A DNA stretch of 64,000 bases from a virus (Duplodnaviria; Caudoviricetes), in IMG/VR virus record IMGVR_UViG_3300003320_000853; one strand, given 5' to 3'. This document shows positions 2,433-63,418 of this stretch, piece after piece. The first letter of the stretch is position 1. Every line of letters begins with the position of its first letter. The translations under genes and the position numbers were made by a program. The notes beneath the pieces were generated by a model, which did not search any database, was not told the DNA's origin, and worked only from the letters and a program-made list of their open reading frames with translations.

Positions 2433-2491
2433 CGGTGTAGACTTCCGCCCGTCAATCGCGACGGATCCTCTTTTCACCGCTCACGAGTAAA

Positions 2492-3553
2492 ATGCACTAC
2501 CTGAATCCGAATCGAAAGTCTGCGCACGTCGTCATCTTCTACCGGAACTTCCTGTCGATGCCTGGGGGCTACTGCCACGTCGGGCTCGGGAACAACGGGC
2601 TCCAAACGGCCAAGGTGCTGCGCAAGAACGGCATCCGCGCCGACCTCTACGGCGTCCGGGAGGCGTCCGACATCCGCCAGATCCTGGCAGGGATCGGCCC
2701 GGCAACGCATGTCGTCATCGAGGCGTTCTGGGTGTCACTTTCCGATCTCCAGTCGCTCATGGCCGAGTTCCCCAACTCGCATTTCATCGTCCGGAGCCAC
2801 AGTCAGATCAGCTTCCTCCAGGTCGAGGCGGGCGCGATCAAGAACCTCCGGGATCTCGTGACGCACCAGGAGGGGGTGCTCAACCTCACGGTAGCGGCCA
2901 ACAACCAGAAGATGTGCGACTTCGTCGAGAAGACGTACCTCGGGCGGTGCCTCTACCTGCCCAACCTCTACGATGTCGAGCGGGTTCACCGGCGCATGCC
3001 CATGGTGCCCCACACGCACCGAACGCTGCGGATCGGATCCTTCGGAGCTCTCCGGCTCCTCAAGAACCACACGGCGGCAGCGGCGGCGGCCCTGCTCATC
3101 GCCGAGCGGAAGCGCTGCGATCTGGAGTTCTGGATCAGCGTCAACCGCAGGGAGAACAACGGGGCGGAGGGCATCCTCCACTCGCTCCGGAACATGTTCC
3201 AGGGGCTCCCCTGGGCGAAGCTCCACGAGCACCCATGGGAGATGTGGCCGGACTTCCGGCGCAGCATCGCCCACATGGATCTCGCCATGCAGGTCTCCTT
3301 TACGGAGACGTTCAACATCACGGCTGCCGATGCGGTCACCGAGGGAGTGCCTTGCGTGACGGGCCCGGCGATCGAATGGGTGCCTCGCGACTGGCAGGCG
3401 GACGTCGACACGGCGGCCGACATCGCCCGGGTGGGCATGGCTCTCCTCGGCGACCCGCAAGCGGCCGAGGACGGGCTGGAAGCTCTCACGAACTACGTCC
3501 GCATGGGGACGGAGCGCTGGCTCCACTACCTCGATCAGAACCCCACCAACTAG
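2492..3553 (+). CDS. GT-B (GT4-like) glycosyltransferase
   Basis: SFGALRLLKN and SFTETFNITAADAVTEGVPCV donor-binding motifs. Confidence 0.75.
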   Translation: MHYLNPNRKSAHVVIFYRNFLSMPGGYCHVGLGNNGLQTAKVLRKNGIRADLYGVREASDIRQILAGIGPATHVVIEAFWVSLSDLQSLMAEFPNSHFIVRSHSQISFLQVEAGAIKNLRDLVTHQEGVLNLTVAANNQKMCDFVEKTYLGRCLYLPNLYDVERVHRRMPMVPHTHRTLRIGSFGALRLLKNHTAAAAAALLIAERKRCDLEFWISVNRRENNGAEGILHSLRNMFQGLPWAKLHEHPWEMWPDFRRSIAHMDLAMQVSFTETFNITAADAVTEGVPCVTGPAIEWVPRDWQADVDTAADIARVGMALLGDPQAAEDGLEALTNYVRMGTERWLHYLDQNPTN

Positions 3554-3554
3554 A

Positions 3555-3845
3555 TCACTCGGGGTAGACGGGGATCCGGTGCGTGAAATTCTTGGGGCGC
3601 TTCCGGATCGCCTCGCCACTTCTCTCCAGCCATTCGGCCAACCGATCCAGGGCCTCGTCCGTTGACGCACAGGCGGGCCCCTGGATCGCCATGCCAGCTT
3701 CGGCCTGACCCGCGGGCGTGATGTTGAGGGTGAGATCGAGACTGAGCGTCGTACCCGTAGATCCCGGCGTCGTGTGCTCTACCTCGTAGGTGGCGATCAG
3801 GTGATCTTGGGAGTCTCTCTTGACACTTTTGAGCTTCAGGGCCAT
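3555..3845 (-). CDS. Hypothetical protein
   Basis: ORF with GGTGTAA 8 nt upstream of ATG. Confidence 0.75.
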   Translation of the reverse strand: MALKLKSVKRDSQDHLIATYEVEHTTPGSTGTTLSLDLTLNITPAGQAEAGMAIQGPACASTDEALDRLAEWLERSGEAIRKRPKNFTHRIPVYPE

Positions 3846-3862
3846 GGGGCCCCTTACACCGC

Positions 3863-4750
3863 CTAGAACTCCTGGTCGAGCTGCCCCAGGAGGTCGAAGG
3901 GGTCGGCTGCACGCGCGACTCCCTTGCCGAGAACGAGCACCTCGTTCACCGGGCCGCGGGCATCGCCCTTCGAGTTGATGCTCCGCCGAGCTTGGATGAT
4001 CTTGATCTCGAATCCCGCGTAGAGCTCGCGGATCTCGGAGGCGTCCGAATTCGATAGCATCACGGAGACCCCACGGTTGGACAGATCGCGGAAGACTTCC
4101 GCCAGCGCCTTCTGGTCGTCCATCGTGAAGTCGTCGGTCGTGTAGGACGTGAAGTCGCTCGTCTTCGAGACCGGGATGTATGGGGGATCGAAGTACACGA
4201 AATCATTGCGGAGAGCCGCCTCCTTGACCCAGGCGTAGCTCTCGTGCCTCACGTAGGTGCTCTGGAGAAGCTCTGAGCACGCGCGGATGTTCTCGGGGTC
4301 GTAGAAGTTGACGTTGATGTTCTTGCCCCACGGGGCGTTGAACTCGCCCTTCTTGTTCATCCTGTGGAGCCCGTTGAAGGCCGTCTTGTTGAGGAAGAGA
4401 AAGCGGGCTGCGCGCTCGATCTCGTTCGGAGGCTTGCCCGAACGGACGGCCTTGAAGACGGCTAGTGGATCGGCGTGCGATCGGTAAAGGTCGGCCATGC
4501 GATCCACGGCCTGCATGAACTCGACCGATCGACCCTGCACGATCGCATAGAGGTTGGTGAGCTCTTCGTTGAGGTCGCTGATGAAGGCCCGATTGAAGCG
4601 GCCCTCGGACGCGAGCCGCCAGAAGAGCGCGCCACCCCCAAGGAAGGGCTCGAAATAGGTCTCGATATTTTTGGGGATGTAGGGGAGGAGGTCGGGGAGC
4701 AGTTCGCGCTTACCGCCGACCCATTTGATGAAAGGTTTGGCGTCGGGCAT
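3863..4750 (-). CDS. dam: DNA adenine methyltransferase (Dam/D12 class)
   Basis: KPFIKWVGGK, YFEPFLGGGA and FVYFDPPY motifs. Confidence 0.93.
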   Translation of the reverse strand: MPDAKPFIKWVGGKRELLPDLLPYIPKNIETYFEPFLGGGALFWRLASEGRFNRAFISDLNEELTNLYAIVQGRSVEFMQAVDRMADLYRSHADPLAVFKAVRSGKPPNEIERAARFLFLNKTAFNGLHRMNKKGEFNAPWGKNINVNFYDPENIRACSELLQSTYVRHESYAWVKEAALRNDFVYFDPPYIPVSKTSDFTSYTTDDFTMDDQKALAEVFRDLSNRGVSVMLSNSDASEIRELYAGFEIKIIQARRSINSKGDARGPVNEVLVLGKGVARAADPFDLLGQLDQEF

Positions 4751-4767
4751 CTCACGCCCTACACCAC

Positions 4768-4932
4768 CTATCTCTGGTAGTCAGACGCGCTGGACGTCTT
4801 GCGGAAGGTGAGCACGAAGCACCCATCGGTTTCCCTGAATGTGCTCCGAGACACATTGACGTCCCAGCCGCCCTGCGTGCGGTACATGTCGGCCAGGTGG
4901 TTCACCACGCGGGACGAGAACTTGCCGTCCAT
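4768..4932 (-). CDS. Small hypothetical protein (54 aa, MDGKFSSRVVNHL...)
   Basis: Own translation; fills the gap between neighbours with coding-like codon use. Confidence 0.45.
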   Translation of the reverse strand: MDGKFSSRVVNHLADMYRTQGGWDVNVSRSTFRETDGCFVLTFRKTSSASDYQR

Positions 4933-62443: not shown

Positions 62444-62445
62444 GC

Positions 62446-63093
62446 CTACTCGTCGTCGGCCAGGAGATGCTCCCAGGCGTTCTGGGGCTTGCCCACCACG
62501 GCCTTCGTGAGCCGTAGAAGCGGGAAGTCCTCCTTGAGGCGCGGGCCCGTGTCGAGATCCCGCACCCCCACCGAGCAGAGATCCACCATTGTATCGTTCG
62601 AGATGTCCCGGACCGTCACCAGCCAGAGTTCTTTGCGCCTCTGGATGAAGATCGCGGCCCTCCAGAGGAAGAGCTGGCCGGTGACCGCATCTTTGGCCCC
62701 CGTCGCAACCTCGAAGGGTTCGGCGCTGAGATCGACTTTGGGTCTCTCCCACCGGAAGTGCGTCGTCGAATGGTATACCCCGCCCACATCGGTGATGGGC
62801 GTAGAATCCCACCGGATCTGGCCGGCGTTCGCGGCCTCGTAGGCCCGCAAGGCATCGTAGACGTCGATCCTGGTCTCGTGGCACGTGACGTCGCCCCGCT
62901 TGAGAGAAGCTCCCGGGCTGAGGAACTGCGTCCTCTCCTTGGGCGGGTCGAGCATGCTCCGGCGACCGCCCTGATCCCGCTTGACAGAAATCCGGCCGGT
63001 TGCGTCTCCGACTTCGAAGGTCCGCACCACGATGGACTGCGGGCACTGTTCGTGGAGAATGAGCACTGGACGTCGGCTCAGATCGAGGATCAT
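62446..63093 (-). CDS. Hypothetical protein with C-terminal tag (KPQNAWEHLLADDE)
   Basis: ATG 8 nt after GGTGTAT. Confidence 0.75.
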   Translation of the reverse strand: MILDLSRRPVLILHEQCPQSIVVRTFEVGDATGRISVKRDQGGRRSMLDPPKERTQFLSPGASLKRGDVTCHETRIDVYDALRAYEAANAGQIRWDSTPITDVGGVYHSTTHFRWERPKVDLSAEPFEVATGAKDAVTGQLFLWRAAIFIQRRKELWLVTVRDISNDTMVDLCSVGVRDLDTGPRLKEDFPLLRLTKAVVGKPQNAWEHLLADDE

Positions 63094-63101
63094 GGGGAAG
63101 A

Positions 63102-63120
63102 ATACACCGGAGCGGTGTAT
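63102..63120. promoter_or_regulatory. Back-to-back GGTGTA elements
   Basis: ATACACC-GGAGC-GGTGTAT, 8 and 10 nt from divergent ATGs. Confidence 0.7.
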
Positions 63121-63130
63121 CTGGGGGTTG

Positions 63131-63409
63131 ATGTGGTGGAAGGTCGAGCACGAGTTCGTGATCTCTCGGGTCGCGATCCGCACCAATTTCGTCGTCGAGC
63201 AGACCAACGGCGAGTGGATCTTCTGGCGCCCCTTCAAGAACGGCAGGAAGCCTGAGAAACGGTTCCGCGTGATCGGCGACAACAGTACGATCCGGGCCGC
63301 GATCGTCGGCGATTGGTTGGTCCGTATGGAGGAGCCGGCATGGGCGAAGACCCTCTACCGGCCCACGGCGTGGGAACATCTCGAAGGAGATCCGTTCGAG
63401 GCGGTGTAG
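63131..63409 (+). CDS. Hypothetical protein with C-terminal tag (RPTAWEHLEGDPFEAV)
   Basis: ATG 10 nt after GGTGTAT. Confidence 0.75.
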   Translation: MWWKVEHEFVISRVAIRTNFVVEQTNGEWIFWRPFKNGRKPEKRFRVIGDNSTIRAAIVGDWLVRMEEPAWAKTLYRPTAWEHLEGDPFEAV

Positions 63410-63418
63410 AGCCGACCC

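Follow-up and report, generated by a model that had tools for sequence, protein, structure and literature searches.

GGTGTA boxes ten nucleotides before start codons: a candidate promoter class for leaderless mRNAs in uncultured huge phages

Why should the same six letters stand at nearly the same distance before start codon after start codon? We asked this of 64,000 nucleotides (nt) of IMG/VR record IMGVR_UViG_3300003320_000853, a stretch that we call the window. The DNA belongs to an uncultured Caudoviricetes phage of ~377 kb in which about one third of the genes have GGTGTA ten bases 5' of the start codon. The window has a G+C content of 63% and ~93 densely packed genes. An initial annotation listed about 36 starts with the box and proposed an element-specific promoter. 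We find that GGTGTA is probably an extended -10 promoter of the sigma-70 family type, with GGTG as the extension and no need of a -35 box, and that it is predicted to give leaderless mRNAs. Below, class B denotes GGTGTA ~10 nt before a start. Class A denotes TTGATC-N16-TGTAG-N7-ATG. Class B spacing is the number of nucleotides separating the final A of GGTGTA from the start codon.

The window contains 52 copies of GGTGTA, counting both strands. In 100 dinucleotide shuffles the expectation was 8.2 +/- 3.3 and the maximum 17. A script check located the box on the gene's strand at all 36 listed starts. The distance to the start codon is 9 nt in 8 cases, 10 in 18, 11 in 8 and 12 in 2, with a mode of 10. 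The start codons are ATG (32) or GTG (4). All but two open reading frames of 64–840 codons; the short ones are at 28916 (10 codons) and 44083 (32 codons). Of the 60 orderings of these six letters, only GGTGTA is start-associated, with 34 such copies against a median of 2. A motif-blind scan of all hexamers in the window also ranked GGTGTA top (37/52 compared with a base rate of 0.18, p = 4e-17). The logo of the box reads Y-GGTGTA-R. The rest of the copies are either intragenic (~10, about the chance number) or lie 13–90 nt before a start (six to eight).

Starts behind the box mostly lack a Shine-Dalgarno (SD) sequence, as the initial annotation noted. The core GGAG or GAGG precedes 1 of 33 class B genes versus 21 of 51 other genes (Fisher p = 7e-5; background rate 14%). 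Five copies were said to sit further upstream of their genes, and these are real. Four of the five are followed by an SD: GGAGG, AGGAAG, GGAG and GAGG before the starts at 25031, 32869, 43453 and 54222, respectively. At 32828, box, hairpin and SD recur in the same arrangement in a relative (L001, ~17925–17965, with AAGGAG), where changes in the stem are compensating.

Other features are those of a promoter. With classes A and B taken together, C occupies position -1 at 27 of 35 window starts (p = 0.004) and at 85 of 122 starts in the related genome G001 (p = 3e-6), as against 44% at SD-type starts. A pyrimidine followed by a purine, here C-1/A+1, is the usual context of a transcription start. 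Five divergent gene pairs have starts merely 35–57 nt apart and a box on each side; one of these pairs makes the palindrome TACACCGCGGTGTA. Hence, there is no space for other promoters or leaders. The observation that no -35 box is conserved also held, for GG-type boxes alone: positions -45 to -18 all carry <=0.4 bit, and TTGATC occurs at the class A distance in 0 of 34. Canonical -35/-10 promoters were not enriched in the 20 kb of the window scanned (1 found, 2.1 expected).

We propose the following mechanism. With +1 at the A that opens the start codon, GGTGTA would be G-16 G-15 T-14 G-13 T-12 A-11. In line with T-12 and A-11 of a -10 element, the A of the box lies 10 nt (range 9–12) before the start in 36 of 36 cases. 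TA would be the first two bases of the -10 hexamer and GGTG an upstream extension replacing the -35 contact. RNA polymerase would melt the DNA from TA on and begin the transcript on the A of ATG or no more than two bases from it. The mRNA, having neither leader nor SD, would be translated by the leaderless route. From a box 30–90 nt upstream, an ordinary leader with an SD would be made.

We examined relatives for the same arrangement. Loci of 20 kb were fetched via the CobT-like protein and a clade-specific 769-amino acid protein, and whole IMG/VR records included G001 (350 kb) and G003 (IMGVR_UViG_3300027985_000843; 372 kb). Megablast and tblastn found no close relative of the window among GenBank phages, and scans of IMG/VR and JGI metagenomes for exact matches to the window gave none. 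In blind scans, GGTGTA headed the start-associated hexamers of four loci (L001, L005, L011 and L012), ranked first or second in L006 and L010/L013, and was also seen in L007. These motif-bearing loci share 46–69% identity with the window. At <=44% identity, GGTGTA was not start-associated in the blind scan and SD-like words were found instead. In L001 (69% protein identity), box and spacing are kept at orthologous genes while the flanks have diverged. The whole genomes agree: 99 of 210 GGTGTA copies are start-associated in G001 (52 at 10 nt) and 111 of 259 in G003 (58 at 10 nt). In G003 the box extends as C-GGTG-TAtgtT, with T at -7 in 66 of 100 cases (p = 5e-23). This is the canonical TAnnnT hexamer, 6 nt before ATG. 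Spacing, C-1, lack of SD, SD-led distal copies, divergent pairs, conservation and the G003 hexamer all favour, indirectly, the original suggestion of a -10-like element with transcription beginning at or near the start codon.

Several observations weigh against this interpretation. Both the position of the transcription start and the lack of a leader are deduced from sequence. T at -7 is a key base for primary sigmas. Four bases past TA, however, T is weak in the window (12/34, p = 0.015) and in G001 (27/89, p = 0.015). In the box, TG adjoins TA (-14/-13) and the extension is GGTG, whereas the TG of a classical extended -10 is at -15/-14. In up to 13 of 36 cases, a same-strand open frame of at least 60 codons terminates at the box's TAR. 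Hence, the preference for R may partly reflect coding. Finally, TGTA stands 8 nt from ATG in class A and 10 nt in class B. Being 2 nt closer in class A, both register and start point cannot be common to the two classes.

Class A emerged from what were first taken to be variants of the box, such as GCTGTAG. The sequences are real. However, four of them and three more starts form a separate class with TTGATC 16 nt upstream of TGTA. This distance is exact in nearly all NNTGTAG starts that lack GG. The window holds five exact copies of TTGATC-N16-TGTA, compared with 0.07 expected, plus two near copies. In G001 there are 70 class A promoters, 69 with N16; TGTA is mostly 8 nt from ATG, and C is at -1 in 84%. 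The genes are small, with a median of 96 amino acids compared with 165 for class B. G003 has no TTGATC-N16-TGTA. Instead, the whole record has ~50 copies of CCGAAC-N16-CGTAGTA-N5-ATG, and the spacing CGAAC-N17-GTAGTA is found in 45 of 53. Hence, the signature of extracytoplasmic function (ECF) promoters, a -35 AAC core and a -10 CGT core, is absent from this genome (TTGATC, TGTAG) and present in G003, within the same architecture. A scan of 185,579 species genomes for a host or prophage with the class A pattern gave scattered single chance matches alone.

Two side observations concern class A. The TTGATC box includes a GATC site, and a D12-class (Dam-type) adenine methylase (PF02086) is among the proteins encoded in the window; speculatively, methylation of the -35 box could modulate these promoters. 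In L005, two minus-strand genes (8691–8740 and 9927–9975) have GGTGTA inside the class A spacer, as TTGATC-N6-GGTGTA-N4-TTGTAG-N4-ATG. In these overlapped promoters ATG is just 5 nt past TGTA, unlike the distance in the window.

The initial annotation suggested looking for sigma or RNA polymerase genes elsewhere in the genome. A sigma-like protein, P0064, is indeed encoded on this phage's 376,986-bp contig; no RNA polymerase was matched in the relatives searched. Briefly, a Pfam scan of the relatives found a 303-amino acid protein in G003 that matches Sigma70_r2 above cut-off, over the first half of sigma-70 region 2. Its G001 homologue is 35% identical, and none was found in G004, which is complete and motif-free. 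The family has nine members in a collection of 5.8 billion proteins, P0064 among them, and one source names a member sigma-24-type. A 17-kb Logan contig (L030) encodes a protein identical to P0064 and represents the window's phage outside the window. It carries three class B and three class A promoters. A DnaJ-type CxxCxGxG zinc ribbon interrupts region 2 of the protein, and a helix-turn-helix lies at its C terminus. We call it sigma-like on the strength of the Pfam match (one member above cut-off), this helix-turn-helix and the name given by one source. A sequence profile search of the PDB gave no match. The AlphaFold model is poor (pLDDT 63) and Foldseek returned non-significant matches only; the best were ECF sigmas, headed by phiEco32 gp36 (chain 9m7y_F).

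In L030, G001 and G003 alike, the sigma-like gene is preceded by the genome's own class A-type box. For an ECF sigma gene, lying behind its own promoter type is the usual autoregulatory layout. The annotated start in L030 is probably four codons late; the class A box points to ATG 6206. The rigid spacer, the co-variation of sigma and promoter, and this upstream box point to class A, rather than GGTGTA, as the better fit for the phage sigma. We conclude that class A is probably an ECF-type -35/-10 promoter, also predicted to be leaderless, and that the phage's own ECF-like sigma probably reads it.

Which factor would then read GGTGTA? The same Pfam scan detected no second protein with sigma region 2. 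A sigma-4-type protein of 236 amino acids occurs in all five related records (G001–G005), motif-bearing or motif-free (G004 and G005). No beta-type or T7-type RNA polymerase (PF00562, PF00940) was matched in G001–G005, though very divergent polymerases could escape. Sigma and RNA polymerase families are also missing from the 25 listed of the 35 Pfam families matched by 85 window proteins. It had been argued that the missing final T makes a phage sigma or RNA polymerase a likely reader. That argument is weak, given that G003 keeps the T, that five relatives show no polymerase, and that the sigma matches the TTGATC class better. Tentatively, our first candidate is the host holoenzyme with its primary sigma, perhaps altered by a phage factor. 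The canonical hexamer of G003, a geometry like that of Deinococcus, and a box that stays constant while the phage sigma and class A diverge all point this way. A phage-encoded sigma-like factor is nearly as likely; T-7 is lost here, GGTG is invariant and directly adjoins TA, shifted by one base from the classical TGn, and the box is confined to one subclade. Any other reader seems quite unlikely.

Under a stricter alternative, GGTGTA would be a promoter private to the phage: a phage-encoded sigma or sigma-like appropriator alone would read it, the host primary sigma would not, and this would be the second step of a phage sigma cascade. The near loss of T-7 from the window and G001 beside an invariant GGTG would suit this, as would the restriction of the motif to one subclade. 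The ECF-like P0064 is in this genome, with homologues in motif-bearing G001 and G003 and none in G004, and the sigma-4-type protein is present too. However, P0064 suits class A better in geometry, in its co-varying promoter and in the box ahead of its gene, and GGTGTA is the same in G001 and G003 despite the merely 35% identity of that sigma. The sigma-4-type protein is no better, since motif-free genomes have it. G003 keeps TAnnnT, and a second region 2 protein was not detected. We regard exclusive reading by a phage factor as somewhat unlikely.

Could GGUGUA act in the mRNA instead? It might be a non-SD translation start signal, or a reinitiation signal for ribosomes that terminate on its UAR, or just ahead of it, and resume at the AUG 10 nt downstream. 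The box lies near the position of ribosome-binding sites, and the stop of the upstream gene is usually inside the box or <=12 nt from it. There is also a precedent: the start-associated sequences of cluster K mycobacteriophages (GGGATAGGAGCCC) lie 3–7 bp before starts, contain the SD core AGGAG and are thought to be translational (PMC3203893). Like GGTGTA, these are clade-specific oriented motifs at many non-structural genes, mostly before ATG and sometimes holding the upstream stop codon. GGTGTA differs in excluding an SD, in being further from the start and in its -10 features. Judging by the known rRNA tail, GGUG alone could pair with 16S CACC, at 12 nt from AUG where 1–5 nt is called for, and UA would stay unpaired. 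None of the ten divergently paired starts follows a gene on its own strand, and distal copies are followed by normal SDs. T-7 in G003 and C-1 are features of promoters, not of mRNA. In sister class A, the -35 box keeps a constant 16-nt distance from TGTA. A translational role is thus highly improbable.

Scarcely credible is an RNA processing site at which a phage or host endoribonuclease cuts polycistronic transcripts ~10 nt downstream to leave secondary leaderless mRNAs: genes are tightly spaced and terminators nearly lacking (14 found compared with 10.9 expected, no enrichment) and some boxes are in hairpin loops (7018, 32828, 40770 and 42210), but most copies lack a hairpin, back-to-back divergent pairs would require promoters within opposite genes, and neither the -10-like continuation in G003 nor the class A -35 box would have a role. 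Three other candidates were rejected: an SD-like site by wrong spacing and wrong pairing, a palindromic operator because the box is oriented and asymmetric, and a restriction or methylation site because it would leave the coupling to start codons unexplained.

Returning to GGTGTA as an extended -10 promoter, we considered which genes it would serve. A genome of ~350 kb in this clade carries some 100 promoters of the GGTGTA type and about 70 of the TTGATC type. In G001, neither class precedes the genes for head protease, portal and large terminase (193–206 kb) or the long minus-strand operons flanking them, and few boxes fall in the region. Hence, with the head and packaging module nearly devoid of both, this is no late-gene regulon of the T4 gp55 type. 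Classes A and B look like early or middle classes. Nothing convincing was found when we looked for a third, late promoter motif in G001. A broader proposal can be framed, although we consider it doubtful. In this clade of uncultured 275–385-kb phages, most early and middle genes would be single-gene leaderless units expressed from two private promoter codes. GGTG-TA would have shed the need for T-7 because a phage factor retools host RNA polymerase, and the ECF-type code would co-evolve with the zinc-ribbon phage sigma. If so, ~40% of genes would bypass host promoter recognition and SD-dependent initiation, and would be insulated from phage effects on host transcription and translation.

The separate ingredients are already known: Deinococcus-Thermus and actinobacteria have leaderless genes with an adjacent -10, and phages have extended -10 promoters and ECF-like sigmas. 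Our literature search found no paper that connects GGTGTA with phage promoters, and none that reports leaderless transcripts from huge phages. In Deinococcus-Thermus, TANNNT lies 6–7 bp before the start codon of leaderless mRNAs and is experimentally a promoter in Deinococcus (PMC12340547). Leaderless genes with an adjacent -10 box are described for D. deserti (PMC4007540), and mycobacteria show a like pattern (PMC4633059). The phage arrangement resembles that of Deinococcus in its -10-type element without SD, its start codon as presumed 5' end, the sum of TA, 4 nt and 6 nt that gives N10, and the full TAnnnT of G003. It differs in being viral, in the invariant GGTG abutting TA, in the large loss of T-7, and in forming one of two private regulons with ~100 copies per genome.

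Among phages, Thermus phage P23-45 has extended -10 middle and late promoters, favoured when gp39 moves sigma region 4 off the -35 box (PMC3950348). Similarly, the promoters proposed here would rely on an extended -10 without a -35, a way to keep phage transcription apart from that of the host even though both use the host RNA polymerase. Unlike those of P23-45, they have GGTG abutting TA rather than TGn, have no identified gp39-like factor and are not late in G001. The P23-45 paper (PMC3950348) does not describe leaderless starts.

Phages phiKZ and AR9 resemble this phage in having giant genomes and many short phage-specific promoter motifs. They differ in having their own multisubunit RNA polymerases and leadered mRNAs, whereas no phage polymerase was detected in the relatives here and the design is predicted to be leaderless. 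With 5' ends mapped, phiKZ has no leaderless transcript (PMC8244752) and AR9 has untranslated regions of 26–491 nt (PMC5312081). Hence, leaderless units would be another expression strategy among giant phages.

Promoters consisting of a -10 alone are also known from phages with their own sigmas. T4 late promoters (TATAAATA) are read through gp55, and phiEco32 gp36 promoters have a -10-like box containing TGTA and no -35. GGTGTA likewise would be a -10-only phage promoter. T4 and phiEco32 promoters differ in making leadered mRNAs of middle or late genes, while the head and packaging module of G001 is nearly free of GGTGTA. Class A can be set beside ECF promoters such as B. subtilis SigW (TGAAAC-N16-CGTA) and E. 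coli SigE. Shared features are the rigid 16-nt spacer, the (C/T)GTA -10, the CCGAAC-N16-CGTA of G003 and a sigma gene behind its own promoter type. Class A departs from them in a TTGATC -35 without the AAC signature, in promoters abutting start codons, and in a sigma with a zinc ribbon inserted in region 2 and a weak Pfam match. The structure of phiEco32 gp36 has been described (PMC12276001).

The two classes would give a readable promoter code for an uncultured clade of huge phages, with ~170 predicted transcription starts per genome. They separate small early-type genes from metabolic and replication genes. TTGATC/TGTAG and CCGAAC/CGTAGTA form a natural, co-varying sigma/promoter pair. The model predicts a host that translates leaderless mRNAs well, which would narrow the host candidates. 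The motif also corrects start codons, since several public gene calls in relatives miss the start that it defines. In L001, the calls at 3463 and 6342 move to 3364 and 6357, respectively. In L030, one gene call at 25 (minus strand) begins at an ATG within the box itself, TGTATG. All sites are listed in Table 1.

Table 1. Candidate class A and class B promoters and distal boxes in the window, with the genes for the sigma-like protein in three related sequences (aa, amino acids; coordinates are those of the window unless a record is named).
Element	Position	Strand	Layout	Gene or remark
Class B	3843..3860	-	GGTGTA-N9-ATG	96 aa
Class B	4748..4765	-	GGTGTA-N9-ATG	295 aa
Class B	7000..7018	-	GGTGTA-N10-GTG	245 aa; box in loop of 7-bp inverted repeat
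Class B	8249..8267	-	GGTGTA-N10-ATG	74 aa
Class B	11992..12010	-	GGTGTA-N10-ATG	393 aa; diverges from 12037
Class B	12037..12054	+	GGTGTA-N9-ATG	769 aa, clade-specific protein
Class B	15800..15817	+	GGTGTA-N9-ATG	138 aa
Class B	16878..16896	+	GGTGTA-N10-ATG	372 aa, vWA; L001 orthologue keeps box
Class B	18915..18933	+	GGTGTA-N10-ATG	549 aa, transglycosylase; L001 orthologue keeps box
Class B	22404..22424	+	GGTGTA-N12-ATG	840 aa, CobT-like vWA protein
Class B	25917..25935	+	GGTGTA-N10-ATG	187 aa
Class B	26509..26527	+	GGTGTA-N10-ATG	428 aa, DNMK-like; L001 orthologue keeps box
Class B	27805..27823	+	GGTGTA-N10-ATG	124 aa; box TAG is upstream gene's stop; kept in L001
Class B	28900..28918	+	GGTGTA-N10-ATG	10-codon mini-ORF, then SD-led gene at 28957
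Class B	29489..29507	+	GGTGTA-N10-GTG	172 aa
Class B	30304..30323	+	GGTGTA-N11-ATG	242 aa, NrtR-like
Class B	34102..34121	+	GGTGTA-N11-ATG	64-aa ORF overlapping start of PurA-like gene (34310)
Borderline class B	39354..39376	+	GGTGTA-N14-ATG	67 aa
Class B	40770..40788	+	GGTGTA-N10-ATG	103 aa; box TAG is upstream gene's stop; hairpin loop
Class B	41510..41529	-	GGTGTA-N11-ATG	143 aa; half of palindrome TACACCGCGGTGTA, with 41532
Class B	41532..41550	+	GGTGTA-N10-ATG	222 aa; divergent starts 35 nt apart
Class B	42210..42229	+	GGTGTA-N11-ATG	169 aa; box TAG is upstream gene's stop; hairpin loop
Class B	43565..43584	+	GGTGTA-N11-ATG	159 aa
Class B-like	44067..44085	+	GGTGTA-N10-GTG	merely 32 codons; ambiguous target gene
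Class B	45478..45495	+	GGTGTA-N9-GTG	369 aa
Class B	48799..48816	-	GGTGTA-N9-ATG	183 aa; back to back with class A at 48819
Class B	52004..52023	+	GGTGTA-N11-ATG	150 aa
Class B	52675..52693	+	GGTGTA-N10-ATG	172 aa; box TAA is upstream gene's stop
Class B	55074..55092	-	GGTGTA-N10-ATG	175 aa
Class B	57754..57772	-	GGTGTA-N10-ATG	391 aa; box TAA is upstream gene's stop
Class B	58918..58936	-	GGTGTA-N10-ATG	384 aa; diverges from 58942
Class B	58942..58962	+	GGTGTA-N12-ATG	139 aa
Class B	61062..61079	+	GGTGTA-N9-ATG	173 aa; diverges from box 61051-61056 (-), 13 nt before ATG 61037
Class B	61592..61610	+	GGTGTA-N10-ATG	66 aa; box TAG is upstream gene's stop
Class B	63091..63108	-	GGTGTA-N9-ATG	215 aa; diverges from 63114
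Class B	63114..63133	+	GGTGTA-N11-ATG	92 aa
Class B	63403..63421	+	GGTGTA-N10-ATG	188 aa; box TAG is upstream ORF's stop
Class A	5124..5160	-	TTGATC-N16-TGTAG-N7-ATG	61 aa
Class A	10351..10387	-	TTGATC-N16-TGTAG-N7-ATG	99 aa; first taken for a variant
Class A	20583..20619	+	TTGATC-N16-TGTAG-N7-ATG	272 aa; L001 orthologue keeps both boxes, spacer diverged
Class A	21800..21837	+	TTGATC-N17-TGTAG-N7-ATG	71 aa
Class A	22047..22083	+	TTGATC-N16-TGTAG-N7-ATG	103 aa
Class A	30032..30069	+	TTGATT-N16-TGTAG-N8-ATG	56 aa; kept in L001
Class A	48819..48855	+	TTGATC-N16-TGTAG-N7-ATG	230 aa
Distal GGTGTA	2434..2494	+	52 nt before ATG 2492	predicted leadered, without clear SD
Distal GGTGTA	24997..25033	+	28 nt before ATG 25031	GGAGG between
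Distal GGTGTA	32828..32871	+	35 nt before ATG 32869	box in hairpin loop; AGGAAG
Distal GGTGTA	43451..43508	-	49 nt before ATG 43453	GGAG
Distal GGTGTA	54220..54317	-	~90 nt before ATG 54222	GAGG
Sigma-like gene	L030 6206-7231
Sigma-like gene	G001 280163-281071
Sigma-like gene	G003 282948-283859

Gene products of the window include the CobT-like vWA protein, NAMPT, NrtR, a PurA-like adenylosuccinate synthetase, a deoxynucleoside monophosphate (dNMP) kinase-like protein, a GT51 transglycosylase, RNase HII, the Dam-type methylase, a type IB topoisomerase and an Acb1-like protein. Examined as RNA along with the motif, the window gave no tRNA genes and no Rfam families.

Some boxes have unusual surroundings. 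At 7000–7030, 32813–32850, 40765–40785 and 42200–42225, the box is in the loop of a G+C-rich inverted repeat just past the upstream gene; these may be terminator-like hairpins that hold the next promoter in the loop. Overlapping the box of the NrtR-like gene (30282–30321) are an inverted repeat, GTGTC-N5-GACAC, and a second near copy; the terminator scan also called a stem here. The repeat may be an NrtR operator on NrtR's own promoter. The TGA of the mini-ORF at 28916–28948 overlaps GAGG, the SD of the gene at ATG 28957, and the mini-ORF may be a leaderless upstream ORF coupled to that gene.

The PurA-like gene (region 34119–35728) has a GGTGTA near its 3' end, at 35669–35674, that is kept in L001 (22130–22135). 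It codes for Gly-Val of a conserved peptide. Hence, conservation alone is no mark of a promoter. The best phage matches to the gene product are from cluster C mycobacteriophages (37% identity), some labelled 2-aminooxy adenylosuccinate synthetase. A 64-amino acid ORF, predicted to be leaderless, precedes the gene and overlaps its start, and the dNMP kinase-like gene is close by. Possibly, the protein is a PurZ-type enzyme of a 2-aminoadenine genome; a modified A would bear on recognition of TA.

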